NCBI GenBank assembly: GCA_041946805.1
Contig: JBHGBC010000080.1
Coordinates: 1-26,229 of the forward strand
DNA: 26,229 nucleotides
Origin: a bacterium
Lineage (GTDB): Bacteria; Hinthialibacterota; Hinthialibacteria; Hinthialibacterales; Hinthialibacteraceae
Direction: 5' to 3'
Under the pieces are notes generated by a model that saw only the letters and a list, made by a program, of their open reading frames with translations, had not been told where the DNA came from and did not search any database. The first letter of the stretch is position 1; every line of letters starts with the position of its first letter. Of this stretch, positions 10,928-21,775 are shown one piece after another. Made by a program: the position numbers and the translations under genes.

Positions 10928-12553
10928 TTAATGACTCAGGTGGTTGGATGATTCAAAAAAGGTGGTTTTCAGTTCCGGCGGATCGAATTCCACGGCGTTC
11001 CGCGCGGACCGCAGATCGCAGCCGGTCAGGCTTACGTCCCGTGTCCCGTCGCTCACCCGCAGAAACACGGCGAGGGGCGAGAGAGCCCGGCATCCCCGCA
11101 GCCAGGCGTTTTCCACCCTCTGGAACGCCAGGGCGGGAAATTCGGCTTCCGGCCCCTGGACAGCCACGTCCTCCAAGACCAGGTCCCGCACCGCGCCGCA
11201 CACCAGGGCGGGGCGCGCGTCGGGGGAGGCCCGCCGGAGGGTGATGGAACGGAAGGTCAGCCCTTCCACATCCCGGCAATAGAATCCATACGCGGGCAGC
11301 ACCCCGAACATGGACGATTCGGGATAGGCCTCGGGCTTAAGCGGCACGTCGCGGCGCGCGTCCTCGGCCGTCCCCCCGCCTTCGAATTCCAGATCCAGAT
11401 CGCTGAGCGTGACGTGTTTGATTTTTCCTTCCGGCAATCCGGTAATGGAACAGCCGATATGGGAAACTCCGGTGGCGGTGATGTGGCTGATCTGGACGTT
11501 TTGGAAGGAACCGATCGCCGGCTTCGGCATCCCGGCTTCATAGGGGCGGGCGCGGTTGCCCAGCCGGAGAAAAATGGGCGCCGAAATCCCTTGCATGGTG
11601 AAATGGGAGATCGACACGCGGTCCAGCGCGCCGCCGTCCACGATCTCCAGGGCGATGCCGGCCAGGCCCCGTTGATTTCCGTAGGTGGAGCGCGAATACC
11701 GCGGCGGGCGGATCACGCAGTTCGTGGCCGTGATATCCGTGAAGCCGCCGTTGGATTCCGTCCCCATCTTGAAGGCGTTGCAGTGGCTGCTCAACACGCA
11801 ATTGGTAATGGTGACATCCTCCGTGGGGCGGCCGGTGGTGCTTTTCAGGCACAGGGCGTCGTCGTCCGAATCGAACACGCAATCCGCGATCCGCACCGCG
11901 CGGCAGCCGTCCACGTCGATCCCGTCGTTGTTGTAAGTCACATGATTGAAGACCGAAATGCCCCGCACCGTGAGGTTCTCGCACGCCAGGTAGTGTTGCA
12001 TCCACATCGCGGAATTGCGGAGCGTGACGCCTTCGATCAGCACGTTCCGGCAGGAGATGAGCCGAATGATGTAAGGGCGGCGCCGGTATTCTTTCCACTG
12101 GAAGGCGGCGCCCTGGCCGTCGATCGCCCCGCGCCCGGTGATGGCCACGTCTTCCAGATCTTCCCCGTAAATCAAACTTTGCGTGACGTAGTTATCCGTG
12201 TAGGACCGGATTTTCGGCCGCGTTTCCGGATAAACGGCCGGATCCGGACTGCCCAATAAAGTGGCGCCCGCCTCGAGGTGAAGAGTGATCCGGTTCTTCA
12301 GGAAGAGCGTGGCGGAGAGATACGTTCCCGCGGGGAAATACACCGTGCCGCCGCCGGCCTCCGCCGCCGCGCCGATGGCGGCTTGGATGGCCTGCGTGTC
12401 CATCTGTTTCCCATCGCCGGAGGCCCCGTAGTGCTTGACGGAATAGAAAATCCACGGCGGGGCGCCTGCTTCATCCGCCGTGAAGCACTCCAACGGCACA
12501 AGCCACGAGAGGCACAGGAACAAAAGGAGGGGAAACCGGGACGGCGCGGTCAT
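10928..12553 (-). CDS. Secreted glycoside hydrolase family 28-like beta-helix protein (~541 aa)
   Basis: Signal peptide from ATG 12553 (start uncertain); YGASGDGKQMDTQAIQAAI...GGGTVYFPAGTY N-terminus; NNDGID and SDDDALCLKS acidic motifs; ends 4 nt before exuT. Confidence 0.85.
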   Translation of the reverse strand: MTAPSRFPLLLFLCLSWLVPLECFTADEAGAPPWIFYSVKHYGASGDGKQMDTQAIQAAIGAAAEAGGGTVYFPAGTYLSATLFLKNRITLHLEAGATLLGSPDPAVYPETRPKIRSYTDNYVTQSLIYGEDLEDVAITGRGAIDGQGAAFQWKEYRRRPYIIRLISCRNVLIEGVTLRNSAMWMQHYLACENLTVRGISVFNHVTYNNDGIDVDGCRAVRIADCVFDSDDDALCLKSTTGRPTEDVTITNCVLSSHCNAFKMGTESNGGFTDITATNCVIRPPRYSRSTYGNQRGLAGIALEIVDGGALDRVSISHFTMQGISAPIFLRLGNRARPYEAGMPKPAIGSFQNVQISHITATGVSHIGCSITGLPEGKIKHVTLSDLDLEFEGGGTAEDARRDVPLKPEAYPESSMFGVLPAYGFYCRDVEGLTFRSITLRRASPDARPALVCGAVRDLVLEDVAVQGPEAEFPALAFQRVENAWLRGCRALSPLAVFLRVSDGTRDVSLTGCDLRSARNAVEFDPPELKTTFFESSNHLSH

Positions 12554-12849
12554 CCGGAATCCGCGATGGGTAATAAGTGGAGTGGGCAACATGCCGGATC
12601 TCTTTCTGCCACGCGCTTGGATTTGGCCGTACACCTCATTGATCTGAACCATTTGCTCGATACGGTACCGAAACCTGACCGGCAGGACAAGAAGACCCGG
12701 GTGTTCATGACAGAAAAGTAATACGTGACAAGGATTCCTGCTGGATCAGATGGATATGCGGAGGTGTTGAGGGCATGCCTTGGAGAGAAAGCGTTTCATC
12801 TCCGAAAGGGATCCACATTGCCCTACGGCAGGGCCTATCACCAATGGCC

Positions 12850-12993: not shown

Positions 12994-13025
12994 AAAGCAC
13001 ACCCGGCATCTTGGCCGCGGCTTGC

Positions 13026-13802
13026 TTACATGCGGGCCAAGCCCCGTTGCGAGCGTTGGATGAACTGGATCATGTGCGCCACCTCGGGGACATGGCCGAG
13101 TTCATTTTGGAGGCGTTCGATGGCTTCCTGCTCGGTCAGTTTGGAGCGCATGATGATCTTGTAGGCTTTTTTGAGGTTGGAAATCCGCTCGGGGGAATAG
13201 TTGTGCCGCTTCAAGCCGACGGTGTTGAGGCCGCAGGGCTTGCAGGGATTTCCCCCGTTGGCGGTGAAGGGCAGGATATCCTGCCGCACGGCGGAACCGC
13301 CGCCGACGATGGCGTTTTGGCCGATTTGCACGAACTGGTGCACCCCCACCAATCCCCCCAGGATGGCGTTTTGTTCGACCAGGATATGTCCCGCCAGGCC
13401 GGCGAACGAGGCCATGATTACCCGGTCTTCGAGCACGCAATTGTGGGCGATGTGGCAATAGGACATCACCAGGCAGTTGTTGCCGACCCGCGTGGCTTCG
13501 CCGGCGTAAGTCGCCCGGTTGATGGTGGCGTATTCACGGATGGTGGTGTTGTCGCCGATGATGACGTAACTCTCGTCCCCCCGGTATTTGAGATCCTGCG
13601 GTTCGCTCCCGATGACCGCGCCCACGCCCACGCGGCAGTTCCGTCCAATGAGGGTGTGGCCCTCGATGACCGCATGCGGCGCGATCTGCGTTCCATCCCC
13701 GATCTTGACGTATTGGCCGATCACCGCATAGGGACCCACTTCCACCTTATCACCCAATTCCGCGTGAGGATGGACACTTGCCGAGTTCGAAACCAGTGTC
13801 AT
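13026..13802 (-). CDS. lpxA: Acyl-ACP--UDP-N-acetylglucosamine O-acyltransferase (258 aa)
   Basis: Hexapeptide repeats; PQDLKY, IRE, HIAHNC, LAGH and VHQF motifs intact; start at ATG 13802. Confidence 0.96.
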   Translation of the reverse strand: MTLVSNSASVHPHAELGDKVEVGPYAVIGQYVKIGDGTQIAPHAVIEGHTLIGRNCRVGVGAVIGSEPQDLKYRGDESYVIIGDNTTIREYATINRATYAGEATRVGNNCLVMSYCHIAHNCVLEDRVIMASFAGLAGHILVEQNAILGGLVGVHQFVQIGQNAIVGGGSAVRQDILPFTANGGNPCKPCGLNTVGLKRHNYSPERISNLKKAYKIIMRSKLTEQEAIERLQNELGHVPEVAHMIQFIQRSQRGLARM

Positions 13803-13921
13803 AGACTTTCTTCTTCCTTTTCTTGAAGTCAAGGCGGTTCCTGGTCCTTTGGATCGTTTGCGCCGCGAAGTCCAGCGCATCGCATGAGAGTCTGGGTTGG
13901 CCGTTTTTCAGTTTACCGGAT

Positions 13922-15235
13922 TCAGGCGTCGTTTCCCAGGGAGAAGAACAGTTCCGCTTCCGCGACCAGGACGCCGTCCACGTGGATGGTGCTTTGGACC
14001 TTGCCCGCCTTCTTCCGGATCTTGGTGAATTTCGTCTCGATGATCAGCTGATCACCGGGAACCACCTTGCGGCGCATTTTGGCGTGATCGACGCCCACGA
14101 GATAGGCGATCTTGCCCCGGTTTTCGTTCAGGGAGAGCAGCAGGACGCCGCCCGCCTGAGCCATGGCCTCGATCAGCAGCACCCCCGGCATGATGGGTTC
14201 CTCGGGGAAATGGCCGGTGAAGAAATTCTCGTTATGGGTGACGTTCTTGATGGCCACGACCTTCATTTGGGAATAATCGATATCCACCACCTTGTCGATG
14301 AGCAGGAAGGGATAGCGGTGGGGAAGGAATTTGCGGATTTGCACCACATCCATGGGCAAGGGGGGGACCTGATCCTGTTCCGGCGATTGCGCCTGGCCGT
14401 TCAGGGTTTTCAGGATTTTCCGGACGAAGCGGATGTTGAAGGCGTGTCCCGAGCGGACGGCGATGACGTGACCCTTGAGGGGCTTGCCGAGCAGCGTCAG
14501 GTCGCCGATCACATCTAGAATCTTGTGGCGGACGATTTCATCCTCGAAGCGGAGTTGCTCGTTGAGAAAATCGTGCTCGCCGATGACGATGGCGGTATCC
14601 AGGCTGCCTCCCTTGATTTTCCCCTGCTGGCGGAGAATGTCGACATCCTTGAGGAAACAGAACGTCCGCGCCGGGGCGATCTTCTCGTAAAACACTTCCG
14701 GCGTGATGAGAAACGAGGCGGAGCGGATTCCCACCGCGGGATGGTCGTAGTCGATTTTGTAGGTGATTTCCAGGCGGGGGGAGGGGATGATGGCCAGTTC
14801 GAGGCCGTTCTCGTAGAGCCAGATGGGTTCCTGCACCTCGATGAACTGCTTGGGGCGGTCTAGGGTGACGATCCCCACGCCGCGGAGCGCCTGGACGAAC
14901 ACCTGGGCGCTGCCGTCGCTGATGGGCGGCTCGCTGGACGAGACTTCGAGGATGATGTTGTCGATCCCCAGGCCCGTGCAGGCGGCGAGGACGTGTTCCA
15001 CGGTCTTGATTTGCGTTTCGCCCTTGCCGAGCGCGGTGAGATACAGGGATTCCTCCAGGACCGCGTTGTCGGCGCTCACTTCGATCACCGGTTTTCCCGG
15101 CAAATCGGCCCGCACGAAGCGGATGCCGGCGCCGGCCTCGGCGGGCTTGAAGGTGATGGTGGTCTCCTGGCCGGTATGGAGCCCCACGCCGCTGATGGAT
15201 ACATCCCCTGCGATTGTTTTTTGATATTCGACCAT
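13922..15235 (-). CDS. lpxC-fabZ: Bifunctional UDP-3-O-acyl-GlcNAc deacetylase / 3-hydroxyacyl-ACP dehydratase (LpxC-FabZ fusion, 437 aa)
   Basis: LpxC motifs GVGLHTG, TVEH, APARTF, RHKILD, SGH; FabZ motifs [11 protein letters not shown] and GHFP...[12 protein letters not shown]. Confidence 0.97.
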
Positions 15236-15276
15236 CGGGATTCAATACCTGATTTGAGATAAGAAAATCCAGGGAT

Positions 15277-16284
15277 TCATGGTTCCGGATCGGAATCCGT
15301 CAACCGTTCCTCGAGGGAACGGATTTTCTCGAACAGTTTGGGAAGGCGGGCGATATTGGCTTTCATCCGTTTTTCCTGATGGTGCGGCTGCGCGGGAGCG
15401 CCCCAGTAATCGGCGTCCGGCGGCACATCGCCGGTGACCACGCTCTTGGCCCCGATGCGCGCCATGGCCCCCACCCGGACGCCCGGCGCGATGACCACCT
15501 GGCCCGCGATGGTGACCCGCTCCTCCAAGGTGACGTGTTCGCCGATGGTCACCTGCGCGACGATGATGCAATGCGGGCCGATTTGCGCGCCCGCGCCGAT
15601 CTGGATGAGGTTGTCGGCCTTGGTTCCCTCGCCGATGCGGGTGGGGGCCTGGGGCAGGCCCGAGACCACCACGTTGGCCCCCAGTTCCACGTCGGCCTCC
15701 AATACCACCGGCGCGGGGACGCCGGGGGCGGGGGTGACGTCCATGGGACCGAGCCGGCAGCCGGCGTGGAGAATCGCGCGGTCGCCCACGGCGCAGCCGG
15801 GATAGATGGAAACGTGGGGATACAAGGTGACTTCCTGGCCGATCACGGCGCCTTCCCCCACGAAGACTCCGGGGTAGAGGATGCTGCCCCCGCCGATGCG
15901 GGCGCCCTCCCCGACGAAGGCGTTGGCCATGACGGTCACGTCACGGCCGAGTTGCGCGCTGGCGGCCACATGGCTGGTGGGATGCACTCCGCCGGCGGTC
16001 TTGCGCAGGTCTTTATGAAACAGGTACAAGGCCTTGGAAAAGGTCAGGTAGGGATTCGGCGAGCGGATGACGGGGCGGAAGCCGGTTTCCAGGTCTTTGG
16101 GGACGATGAGGACGGAGGCGTGGGATTCCGGGATCTTGGCGACATACTTGGGATTGGCCACGAACGACAGTTCGCCCGGCTTGGCGGCGGTGATTTCGGC
16201 GACACCGCTCAGGAGGACGGCGCCATCGCCTTCGAACGTTTCACCCAGGAGATCACATAATTCTTTGAGGGAATAGGTCAGCAC
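15277..16284 (-). CDS. lpxD: LpxD homologue (335 aa) lacking catalytic residues; probable pseudoenzyme
   Basis: N-terminal uridine-binding domain (SFVANPKY, NPY), left-handed beta-helix and C-terminal helices are present at the canonical skp-lpxD-fabZ-lpxA position, but QIAHN reads QIGAG and the DGFG and DRG motifs are absent; GTG start. Confidence 0.88.
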   Translation of the reverse strand: MLTYSLKELCDLLGETFEGDGAVLLSGVAEITAAKPGELSFVANPKYVAKIPESHASVLIVPKDLETGFRPVIRSPNPYLTFSKALYLFHKDLRKTAGGVHPTSHVAASAQLGRDVTVMANAFVGEGARIGGGSILYPGVFVGEGAVIGQEVTLYPHVSIYPGCAVGDRAILHAGCRLGPMDVTPAPGVPAPVVLEADVELGANVVVSGLPQAPTRIGEGTKADNLIQIGAGAQIGPHCIIVAQVTIGEHVTLEERVTIAGQVVIAPGVRVGAMARIGAKSVVTGDVPPDADYWGAPAQPHHQEKRMKANIARLPKLFEKIRSLEERLTDSDPEP

Positions 16285-16307
16285 GGAAAAGAACCTACCG
16301 GTCGTTT

Positions 16308-16838
16308 CTATTTTTTGTTGACGCGAGCCAGCACTTTATCCGTGATGTCAAATTTGGGATCGACATAAAAAAGATAACTGCGGCTGAAGATGAAGGAATA
16401 TTTTTCTTCCTTCGCGATATCCTCGATGGTGGCCTTGAGTTTCTGCACGAGCGGCTCGAGCCGCTTTTCGCGTTCCTGGTCCCACTTTTGCGCTTCCGTT
16501 TCGAGCTGCTGCCGGAAGGTGTTGGCTTCGAGTTTCAACGAATCTTCCTGCTGCTTGGCCGATTCGGAGGGCAGCAATTCCTTTTGCAATTCAAAGCCTT
16601 CCCATTCTTTTTGAATCGACTGGCTCTTTTTGCGCAACTCCTGCATTTTCGAAGTGTAAATCGATTTCAATTCATCGGATATTTTCTTGTATTCGATCCA
16701 TTCGCTATGAATCCGTTGCAAGTCCACGAAGCCGAGCTTGATTTGCGCTGATTGGGCCCATCCCGCCGGGGCGCCGAACCAAATCACCCAAACCGCCAGG
16801 CAGCCGGCGTAACGAACCAAGGGCCGAAAAGAGAACAT
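16308..16838 (-). CDS. skp: OmpH/Skp periplasmic chaperone (176 aa)
   Basis: ATG 16838 with GGAGG RBS; signal peptide, KLGFVDLQRI, long coiled coil, DITDKVL C-terminus; lies between bamA and lpxD. Confidence 0.93.
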   Translation of the reverse strand: MFSFRPLVRYAGCLAVWVIWFGAPAGWAQSAQIKLGFVDLQRIHSEWIEYKKISDELKSIYTSKMQELRKKSQSIQKEWEGFELQKELLPSESAKQQEDSLKLEANTFRQQLETEAQKWDQEREKRLEPLVQKLKATIEDIAKEEKYSFIFSRSYLFYVDPKFDITDKVLARVNKK

Positions 16839-16931
16839 GTCGATACCTCCCATGCATGAAATCGCTGCGGTTATTCTATCCGGCTTCCCGGCAAAACACA
16901 CCCCCCGCGTGGTCCGTCCGGATTCCGGAGC

Positions 16932-19321
16932 TTAAAAACTTTGCCCGAAGCTGAAGTGGAAGAACTCCGTGTCGTCCTCGTCGAATTTGCGGATGGGGAA
17001 CGCGAAATCCACGCGCAGCAGGGCGTTCAATCCGGGGATGCGCACCCGCATGCCCACGCCCGTGCTGAAGCGGAAGTCCGCGGGATTGATGTCGCCGATT
17101 TCCGGCCAGTTCGTGCCCATGTCCACGAACGTGACCGCCTGGAAGATTTCCGTGATCGGGTAACGCAATTCCACGTTCCCCACGAAGTCCGCCTCGCCGC
17201 CGAGGTAGGTGCGGAAACCGCCGGTGGGGCTGATGTAACGGATATCGGCGTATTCCCCGATTCCGCCTTCATCGAAGCCGCGGATGGAGTTGGAACCGCC
17301 CACGAAGAACCGTTCCTGCAGCGGGATGAAGCCCGGATCGCCATATGCGTAGGCCAAGTCCATTTGGCCCGAGAGGGCCAGGACCAGCCGCTCGTACACC
17401 GGCATGAAATAATTGACCAGATTCCGCCATTTGATGAATTCGTTATCGGTCAGGCCGGCCACTTCGAGCGTGGAGCGGTTGTAAAAGCCCGTCGTGGGAT
17501 CCAACCGGAAGTCGCGGCTGTCGTAGATGTAACCGAGCGACAGGCTGGTGGTGGTGTTTTCACCCAATTGGAACACTTCGGGCAGGGTGGATTCGTCGAT
17601 AACCACGCCTTCGCCCACATCGGGGGAGATGTCGGTTTGCTCTCCCTTGATTCCCAACAGCAGGGACAGCTCATCATCCAGCTTTTTGCCGATAGTCAGG
17701 CCGGAGCCGATCCGTTGTTCGTCGAACCGGCGCCCGCCGTACCCGTCCTGGTCGATGTAATAGACGTCCAGGTCGCCGCTGTAATCGGTGTTGAACAGGT
17801 GGGGTTCATACAGATTCAGGACGGCGCGGTTGCGGTATTCGCCCAGTTCGCCGGTGAGCGAACCGCGGATGCCGTATCCGAAAAGGTTCCGTTCGGAGAG
17901 GGTTGAAAAGACCGACGGGCCGAAGGCGGTGCTGAAGCCGCCGCCGAAGGTCAGCGCCCCGGTCTGTTTTTCCTCCAGTTGCAGCAGCAGGTTTTCGGTG
18001 TTGGGATCGGAAATGAGGGGTTGCCGGATGAAGCCGGGGACCAGGTTGGTCTGGCCGGGCTGGGGCAGGCCCTTGGTTTTGAAGTAGTCGAGATTGACCA
18101 GGTTCCGGTCGCTTTCGATCACCTGGGTCCAATCGAGCGGATCGCCTTCTTGGAGCTCGATTTCCCGCCGGATGACGAAGTCCTTGGTGCGGAATTCGCC
18201 TTCCTCGGTGGGAACCACGGTGCCGTCGGCGAGGGAGACCACCCCCTGGATTTCGACTTTCCCCAAGTATTTCCGGGTGCTTTCGTTGACCTGGAAATTG
18301 ACGTCACACACCAGGTTATCCTTGTCGGGATTGAGTTGGAAGGGAATGGTGGTGTCCAGGTAGCCTTGCGCCCGGTAGAGGTTCACCATGGCCAGGCGGT
18401 CCATCTGCAGGGTGCTGTAAGAAAAGAGATCGCCGGGACGGAACGTGATCGGCTTGCGCAATTCCTCCTGCGAGAAGATGGTGTTGCCCTCGACCGTGAT
18501 GTTGCCGACCGTATAGGGTTTTCCTTCCTCGACGCGGAAGGTGATCTTGAGGCCCCCATCGATGTTTTCCACGGGATCCTTGGTGGCTTTGGCGTCCAGG
18601 TAGCCGATATCGCGATAGGCCAGTTCGATGATCGACAAGTCGCGCTCGGCCATGGCTTCGTCGTACTGGTGTTTGACGATGAACCAGAACGACTCCTTGG
18701 TCTGGATGCGCTTGCGCAGGGCCTTGGCGGGGATGACCGTGTTGCCCTCGAAAACGATTTCCTTGACCGGCAAGCGTTCGCCTTCCTTGATCTGGAAGAT
18801 CAGGAAGACGGTGCCAGGCTCTTTCGCCGGCTCGGTGCGAAAGGTGATTTCGGTGTGGGGAAACGATTTTTCGGTGTAGTAGGCCAGGATCTTGGTTTTC
18901 AGCTTGTCGGCCAGGGATTCGTCATAAAACAGCCGTTGCTTGGGGGTGTAGCCGATTTCCTCGTTGAGTTTCTTGGCCTTGTACCGCTGGTTGCCTTCGT
19001 AACGCAGATCCGCCACCAGGGGCTTTTCCACGACTTCAAAGATCAAATTTCTCCCGCCCGCCGCCGGTTCCTCGGAAACCGTTACGTCTTCAAAATATCC
19101 CAACGCATAGATGGCCCGGAAGTCATCCCGGATGCGCATGGCCGTGGCCGTGGAGGTCAACTCATCCCCCGGCTGCGTCTGGATGACTTCGAACACCTCT
19201 TTTTTGTCCACATGCACCGTGCCCTCGACCAGGACCTCCACGATCTTTTCCGCGGTCGAAAGGCTGGGACCGGCCAGCACCAAGGTGAATAACCCTAGAT
19301 GGATGATAAGAGACCGCTGGT

Positions 19322-19325
<4 letters not shown>
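16932..19325 (-). CDS. bamA: Outer membrane protein assembly factor BamA (~797 aa; proposed CTG start)
   Basis: Five POTRA repeats, Omp85 barrel with IRGF motif and C-terminal Phe. The CTG at 19325 has AAGGAGGT 6 nt upstream and restores a complete signal peptide; the first canonical start is TTG 19283. Confidence 0.93.

Positions 19326-21775
<2,450 letters not shown>

Follow-up and report, generated by a model that had tools for sequence, protein, structure and literature searches.

The 26,229-nucleotide stretch of DNA analysed here (positions 1 to 26,229 of contig JBHGBC010000080.1, assembly GCA_041946805.1; "the window" below) comes from a bacterium of the Hinthialibacterota and carries, in a lipid A operon, an lpxD-like gene that we call D. 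LpxD, which acts in lipid A synthesis, is essential and has been studied extensively as an antibiotic target. The D protein has lost one wall of the LpxD active site and keeps the other, and a second gene in the same genome, S, encodes a protein with the reciprocal pattern. Residue conservation in the two proteins suggests that LpxD in the Hinthialibacterota is probably an obligate heteromer of D and S with one composite active site. On balance we favour a more specific form of this arrangement, an obligate D/S heterotrimer throughout the phylum in which opposite walls of the site would have been reciprocally lost, S would work without a uridine-binding domain, and each trimer would hold a single composite site. 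The operon copy D would then probably be an essential partner and not a relic.

Gene D keeps the LpxD fold and lacks its catalytic residues

The features of D to which the text refers are as follows (aa, amino acids).

15277 to 16284, minus strand: lpxD-like gene D; GTG start, 335 aa, no internal stop
16000 to 16284, minus strand: uridine-binding domain, approximately residues 1-95 (PF04613), with most of the invariant columns of 47 D-type sequences
16144 to 16164, minus strand: FVANPKY, residues 41-47; F41, N44 and Y47 each in 34/34 genome orthologues
16048 to 16056, minus strand: NPY, present in D
15709 to 15750, minus strand: shortened loop GPMDVTPAPGVPAP, in place of the canonical repeat-5 DGFGY...K..PQxG loop
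15607 to 15621, minus strand: KADNL, residues 222-226, corresponding to E. coli K230, D232 and N233
15592 to 15594, minus strand: Ala231, aligned with His239, the catalytic base
15481 to 15483, minus strand: Gly268, at the position of His276

The LpxD uridine-binding domain profile PF04613 matches residues 24-86 of D with 66.5 bits (cut-off 30.8), hexapeptide repeats are also recognised, and the protein passes the LpxD subfamily model NF002060 (255.5 bits vs 207, profile positions 3-343); it falls below the LpxD equivalog model TIGR01853 (224.9 vs 242.5 bits). Its closest solved structure is the Chlamydia trachomatis LpxD 2iu8 (E 1.4e-42), with which it aligns end to end, and it has the three-domain LpxD architecture of uridine-binding domain, left-handed beta-helix and C-terminal helix. 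An earlier reading of this DNA, made from the sequence only, had described D as an uninterrupted open reading frame (ORF) with an intact uridine-binding domain, and the intact frame and the profile match bear this out.

Residues of D were placed by two alignments, one with 2iu8 and one made by MAFFT with E. coli K-12 LpxD from NC_000913. Both agree with the sequence-only reading that His239 and His276 of E. coli LpxD correspond to Ala231 and Gly268, at a spacing of 37 in both proteins, and the codon coordinates given there were correct when re-derived. The replacement of the DGFGY/IPQ loop by the shorter segment and of IDRG by VSGL, which it had also described, is likewise seen in the alignment with the E. 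coli protein, where the DR motif reads SG and the oxyanion Gly257 position is occupied by Glu249. A histidine in GPHC or GEHV of D had been suggested as a possible stand-in for the catalytic base; both candidates were rejected, with His in just 70% and 40% of the D-type proteins, respectively, and the GPHC column is also His in C. trachomatis LpxD. With its catalytic residues and loop replaced in this way, D would not be self-sufficient as an LpxD.

A second, unlinked LpxD gene in the same genome

When the window's genome, which is 96.8% complete, was searched in all six frames with the LpxD model, exactly two matches exceeded the cut-off, D (252.3 bits, profile positions 3-343) and S, a second locus on another contig (C261:55427-56170), with 262.6 bits over profile positions 95-343. 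LpxA followed with 102.6 bits, so that neither a third protein above the LpxD cut-off nor a canonical LpxD was found in this genome by that search.

G000:C261, approximately 55388 to 56221, minus strand: S, 277 aa, protein P0121; LpxD-model match (G000 is the window's genome)

S has no PF04613 match, and the six-frame search of the genome gives a significant PF04613 match in D only. Without this N-terminal domain S passes TIGR01853 (255.8 vs 242.5 bits, profile positions 91-323), and it contains the motifs SDGFGY, PQVG, DRAT, QVGHN and MVGH. The sequence-only reading had considered a second lpxD elsewhere in the genome, and S, unlinked to D and with its QVGHN motif kept, is such a gene. Its roughly 50 nearest database neighbours are short forms like itself (234-289 aa, no PF04613), after which come full-length canonical LpxDs with 41-51% identity. 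S lies beside a metK-like gene (S-adenosylmethionine synthetase, judged from the translation) in four of nine loci inspected (genomes G000, G001, G010 and G006), and no lipid A genes lie beside it in these nine loci. The window's genome also contains lpxB, lpxK and waaA, and the cell therefore needs the LpxD N-acylation step.

D and S conserve reciprocal halves of the active site

A review (PMC6286764) places the LpxD active sites of the C. trachomatis and E. coli structures at subunit interfaces, each between two chains. In C. trachomatis LpxD, F43, Y49 and N46 of chain B hold the uracil, ribose, pyrophosphate and glucosamine (GlcN), and chain A gives His247, His284 and Gln248 (PMC6286764). 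In E. coli numbering, F41 and Y47 stack on the uracil, N44 and Y47 contact the pyrophosphate and GlcN, D232 (chain B) and Q236 (chain C) bind the acyl beta-hydroxyl, and G257, H239 and F183 lie on the catalytic chain C (PMC6286764). According to the same text Asp232 comes from the chain that carries the uridine-binding domain, Phe183 (within the extended loop of repeat 5), Gln236, His239 (the base), position 240, Gly257 (oxyanion) and His276 come from its neighbour, and the substitution H239A cuts the kcat of LpxD about 1000-fold (PMC6286764).

Columns were counted in E. coli numbering over 34 D and 33 S orthologues from genomes of the phylum. In D, F41, N44, Y47, D232 and N233 are each present in 34/34, and Asp232 and Asn233 are also kept in 58/58 D-type proteins from the database; the canonical residue is never among the commonest at F183, G184, Q197, G199, R217, H239, N240 or G257. 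Column 183 is variable, and at column 257 the commonest residues are D, E, A and P (30/34), with Gly not among these four. In S, F183, G184, G199, R217, H239, N240 and G257 are each present in 33/33 and Q197 and H276 in 32/33; Gly occupies position 232 in 32/33, and just 6/33 have Asn at position 233. The position that contacts acyl carrier protein (ACP), 293, is Lys in all 33 S proteins and mostly acidic in D (Asp in 15 and Glu in 8 of 34).

The same partition is found over the whole shared region. Sixty-one positions (E. coli 95-341) reach a conservation of 90% or more among 66 canonical LpxDs, namely 62 database proteins chosen for having both His residues, whose columns are thus conserved by construction, and four from outgroup genomes. 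Of these positions, 18 are kept in both D and S, 16 in D only (G99, V158, H173, D206, E208, A211, N212, G228, K230, D232, N233, A251, Q252, G269, Q270 and V291), 22 in S only (G167, V177, D181, G182, F183, G184, K194, Q197, G199, D205, D216, R217, G221, H239, N240, G254, G257, S258, G262, G272, H276 and G290) and 5 in neither. Beyond residue 223, register 12-0 of the 18-residue helix turn holds the D-only positions except 291, which is at register 3, and register 2-10 holds the S-only positions; the two sets are thus predicted to lie on different faces of the triangular beta-helix. Within the D clade the docking face has a mean conservation of 0.90 (20/30 positions at 0.9 or more) vs 0.62 for the other face (1/20), and within the S clade the catalytic face has a mean of 0.84 (24/44) vs 0.62 (5/27). 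What one paralogue has lost is retained in its counterpart, and the two sets lie on faces predicted to pack against each other in the trimer.

D and S each conserve one wall of the site while the other drifts, and their meeting in a mixed trimer would therefore be the simplest account. D would give the acceptor-docking half, made of the uridine-binding domain with F41, N44 and Y47, of Asp232/Asn233, and of the surrounding beta-helix face. S would give the catalytic half, namely the DGFGY loop with Phe183, Gln236, His239-Asn240, Gly257, His276 and the Lys at 293. A complete site would form only where the catalytic face of S meets the docking face of D, so that D1S2 and D2S1 trimers alike would have one working site and not three. 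We infer that D and S associate physically in such a ratio and that either would be inactive alone. The statement in the sequence-only reading that the catalytic machinery of D is specifically erased was too broad, as just the half-site of one chain is gone and the docking half is invariant.

The loss in D is old and the gene is maintained

A full-length D orthologue was found in each of 35 Hinthialibacterota/OLB16 genomes (the window's own, G000, included), and its ORF is intact in 34 of them and frameshifted in G028; S is intact in 33/35. His is absent from column 239 in all 34 intact D orthologues, which have A, S, I, Y, V, K and other residues there. The earlier expectation that a maintained protein should share its losses with its relatives and have a ratio of nonsynonymous to synonymous substitution rates (dN/dS) below 1 is borne out here, dN/dS of D between G000 and its congener G001 being 0.088 (dS 1.13, near saturation; computed on whole open frames with a few upstream codons included). 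The corresponding value for S between G000 and its congener is 0.135 (dS 0.78). The loss of His276 holds for the D of the window and not for the whole group, since 5/34 orthologues, all in family f5, have His there. Among 47 D-type sequences 46 columns are invariant, most densely in the uridine-binding domain, where they include S40, F41, V42, N44, K46, Y47, P78 and Y79.

The best 120 database homologues of D comprise 58 without His239 and 62 with both His residues. Close matches are labelled Candidatus Hinthialibacteria bacterium OLB16, HK-STAS-OLB16-2 or, in older records, Candidatus Omnitrophota. Bacteria and archaea were also scanned with a single genome for each species; of the 79 returned loci, 27 are His-less, and their informative titles point to the Hinthialibacterota lineage; the remaining 52 are canonical, mostly from Candidatus Eisenbacteria, at 35-43% identity. 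These comparisons indicate that the loss of catalytic residues in D is old, phylum-wide and maintained.

The D ORF is also covered without insertion or deletion by DNA contigs of another study (run X2, about 97.5% identical) and by RNA-library contigs of a relative about 91% identical (X5 and X9, from one study), of which one 4.2-kb contig spans lpxA to skp with an intact D. We note that X5 and X9 are metatranscriptomes of a single anaerobic-digester study, and that single contigs in them cover window positions 13013-16906. Apart from X5 and X9, the sequencing runs in which just a small share of the sampled words occurs (0.05-0.06) say nothing about habitat.

A tree of the region common to D and S (74 rows, quick search) supports a D clade (Shimodaira-Hasegawa-like approximate likelihood ratio test, SH-aLRT, 99) and an S clade (96, with row S_L067 excluded) with matching family-level groupings, and D and S therefore both date to the ancestor of the phylum and were inherited vertically. 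The sister relation of D and S is not resolved by this tree, which has short backbone branches with support below 95%, and row S_L067 shifts beside D on a long branch. We infer that a duplication gave rise to the pair and that the two copies then lost opposite halves of the site.

Model of a mixed trimer

Structure prediction of a D1S2 trimer, with a separate alignment for each protein as input (A1, 47 rows; A2, 48 rows), gave an ipSAE of 0.91 in 3/3 runs, and the best of three controls reached 0.23; the ipSAE mark is passed by 116/157 solved complexes and 2/215 mismatched pairs. The runs have at least 84% of contacts in common and a partner predicted local distance difference test score (pLDDT) of at least 88. 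The model places the DGFGY loop (106-123) and residues 141-165 of one S copy against D, which it contacts in the uridine-binding domain (28-33, 77-90) and at 173-175, 200-204, 222-226, 242-244 and 261-262; these contacts take in 12 of the 16 D-only positions. The model suggests that a mixed trimer is sterically LpxD-like, and does not imply that it is preferred over homotrimers.

Alternative explanations

The main competing explanation, which we consider unlikely, is that a homotrimer of S is the real LpxD and that D forms a homotrimer with a non-catalytic role, as a sensor of uridine diphosphate (UDP)-sugar or acyl-ACP, a scaffold for LpxA/LpxC or a regulator. Every catalytic-chain residue is present in S, which also scores above the LpxD equivalog cut-off; D has neither the base nor the loop nor the oxyanion Gly, is unlinked to S, and stays in the lipid A operon under purifying selection. 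LpxA-type beta-helix acyltransferases, moreover, bind UDP-sugars without the LpxD N-domain. Against this, S is without 16 canonical positions that make up the other wall of every LpxD site, and an S-S interface would be incomplete because S has lost Asp232, Asn233 and 14 other canonical positions. A sensor or scaffold has no evident need for Asp232 and Asn233, which every D orthologue and database D-type protein examined retains, and the relaxed conservation of both the non-catalytic face of S and the catalytic-side face of D is as expected if only the S-to-D interface works. The maintained pseudoenzyme proposed in the sequence-only reading thus stands in so far as D is maintained, is not decaying and would not be self-sufficient, and the invariant docking half-site makes it probably no inactive subunit, sensor or scaffold. 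The two options left open there, a heterotrimer subunit or another enzyme for the N-acylation step, both pointed in the right direction; the word "inactive" for the subunit probably does not hold.

It is improbable that D has been neofunctionalised, with its UDP-binding domain retained and other catalytic residues acting in another reaction on a UDP-sugar or an acyl-ACP. The strongly conserved N-domain, the clade-specific motifs CIIVAQV and AGQV, the invariant His173 and a His101 present in 93% of D proteins could be read in this way. His173 is, however, also His in 91% of canonical LpxDs and His101 in 79% of S proteins, so that neither is new, and no other His column of D exceeds 77%. The former cleft is variable, as the assortment of residues at column 239 illustrates, and the loop of repeat 5, by which the acyl pocket is closed, is short and non-conserved. 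Decay of D to a pseudogene, or an artefact of assembly, as the missing catalytic motifs and the frameshifted G028 copy might suggest, is practically out of the question because of its orthologue conservation (intact full-length ORFs in 34/35 genomes, 46 invariant columns in 47 sequences), its low dN/dS and the independent indel-free DNA and RNA-library contigs.

Several points weigh against the obligate D/S heteromer. S alone might retain some activity by analogy with LpxA, which binds its UDP-sugar without the N-domain. D and S are unlinked, with no operon or fusion that joins them, and two genomes gave no intact S: none was found in G022 (91% complete), and in G018 (85% complete) the gene is broken into three pieces that are out of frame. 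The chain assignments were taken from a review (PMC6286764) and not from the primary structure papers, and the faces of D were assigned by helix periodicity and listed contact pairs, not by coordinates. The D1S2 score may be a memory of solved LpxD homotrimers, and the model does not discriminate the heteromer from homomers. The RNA-library contigs are a mere hint of transcription of the D operon and no proof of it.

Two lineages also deviate. In G028 (family f6, 84% complete) the frameshifted D has N44D and D232E, and the S of this genome has Asp232 and is without His276; this lineage may work differently, or be an intermediate. In five of seven f5 genomes searched there is a third full-length paralogue, T, with both faces intact, and D plus S therefore need not be the sole LpxD there.

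The G028 D lies in two overlapping frames, L090 1506-2141 and 2116-2511 (G028:C45), which reflect a frameshift or an assembly error; it reads FVADPRY and TKMENMV, and the S of that genome (L067) reads DAQVQVGHN. The T genes (L072-L076, on G033:C615, G029:C13, G027:C38, G030:C126 and G032:C188) are open frames of 375-419 aa. T scores above the TIGR01853 cut-off (273.1 bits for L073), and its DGFGY, DN, GHN and second His are all preserved. The uridine motif of T, DLVWAESKEA, has W for F41, S for N44 and A for Y47, and its PF04613 score of 28.5 bits is under the cut-off. T may be a self-sufficient LpxD or may have another acceptor specificity.

The operon and neighbouring genes

The genes around D in the window are as follows.

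16932 to 19283, minus strand: large ORF, 783 aa; assigned as bamA by gene order relative to E. coli only
16308 to 16901, minus strand: skp/ompH chaperone gene (PF03938, 89 bits)
13922 to 15235, minus strand: fused lpxC-fabZ, 437 aa (NF009667, 495.5 bits vs cut-off 465)
13026 to 13880, minus strand: lpxA, 284 aa (NF003657, 340.1 bits vs cut-off 226)

The order on the minus strand, bamA-position ORF, skp, D, lpxC/fabZ, lpxA, is the same as the E. coli order bamA-skp-lpxD-fabZ-lpxA. LpxA and LpxC/FabZ both score above their NCBIfam equivalog cut-offs, and the LpxA translation contains HIAHN. The lpxC-fabZ fusion is also present at the G028 locus (444 aa, L090 2508-3842). In the relative represented by X9, the spacer between skp and bamA has 283 other letters instead of the 26 at 16906-16933. 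Upstream of the bamA-position gene, an 817-aa ORF (19322-21775, minus strand) resembles by eye a ClpC/ClpB-type double AAA+ ATPase. Elsewhere in the window, a 574-aa ORF (10928-12652, minus strand) with a hydrophobic signal-like N-terminus resembles, also by eye, a polygalacturonase-like right-handed beta-helix glycoside hydrolase.

Relation to known systems and significance

D has the same three-domain fold and operon position as the canonical homotrimeric LpxDs (E. coli 3EH0/4IHF, C. trachomatis 2IU8, P. aeruginosa 3PMO), and S has the same beta-helix and C-terminal helix. In the canonical enzyme both walls of the site are on one polypeptide and the three sites are identical, whereas in the D/S pair the walls are on two gene products, neither of which has both. 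The LpxD paralogues of Francisella and Leptospira are complete enzymes, and those of Francisella are not known as complementary halves. Like the Hinthialibacterota, these bacteria have two lpxD genes per genome (LpxD1 and LpxD2), and the abstract of one paper (PMC3545938) implies that the two Francisella proteins are both complete and serve different temperatures with different acyl-chain lengths.

The nearest structural precedent is the gamma-carbonic-anhydrase heterotrimer of plant mitochondrial complex I (CA1/CA2/CAL), which is a left-handed beta-helix trimer of the same kind with interfacial sites, and in which, because one paralogue is without ligands, no trimer can have more than a single site that might function (PMC7447434). 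It differs in enzyme family and in being from a eukaryotic organelle; CAL is without ligands and is not described as keeping a complementary half that its partners lose, and the activity of the trimer is uncertain. In concept the closest precedent is the deoxyhypusine synthase of trypanosomatids, which is paired with a dead paralogue (PMC3663545). Both there and in AdoMetDC/prozyme an impaired subunit and a dead paralogue form an obligate complex and are both essential (PMC3663545, PMC5201418). These proteins have unrelated folds and belong to eukaryotic parasites, and prozyme acts allosterically and not by half-site donation.

No paper on a heteromeric, split or pseudoenzyme LpxD was found in the literature searched, whose coverage left out most subscription journals, and the S gene and the two-gene form of LpxD in the Hinthialibacterota are probably new. 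To our knowledge, every LpxD structure and kinetic model is of a homotrimer. D and S are both named UDP-3-O-(3-hydroxymyristoyl)glucosamine N-acyltransferase in public records, and an annotation of "lpxD present" from the operon copy alone credits a protein that would be unable to catalyse by itself. If the D/S heteromer is real, it would be a new quaternary solution for the LpxD step and a natural experiment that parts acceptor docking from catalysis and ACP delivery. It would also be a bacterial case in which the subunits of a homomer with interfacial sites have been made mutually dependent by complementary degeneration and, as D and S are unlinked, the ratio of the two subunits could control lipid A flux.

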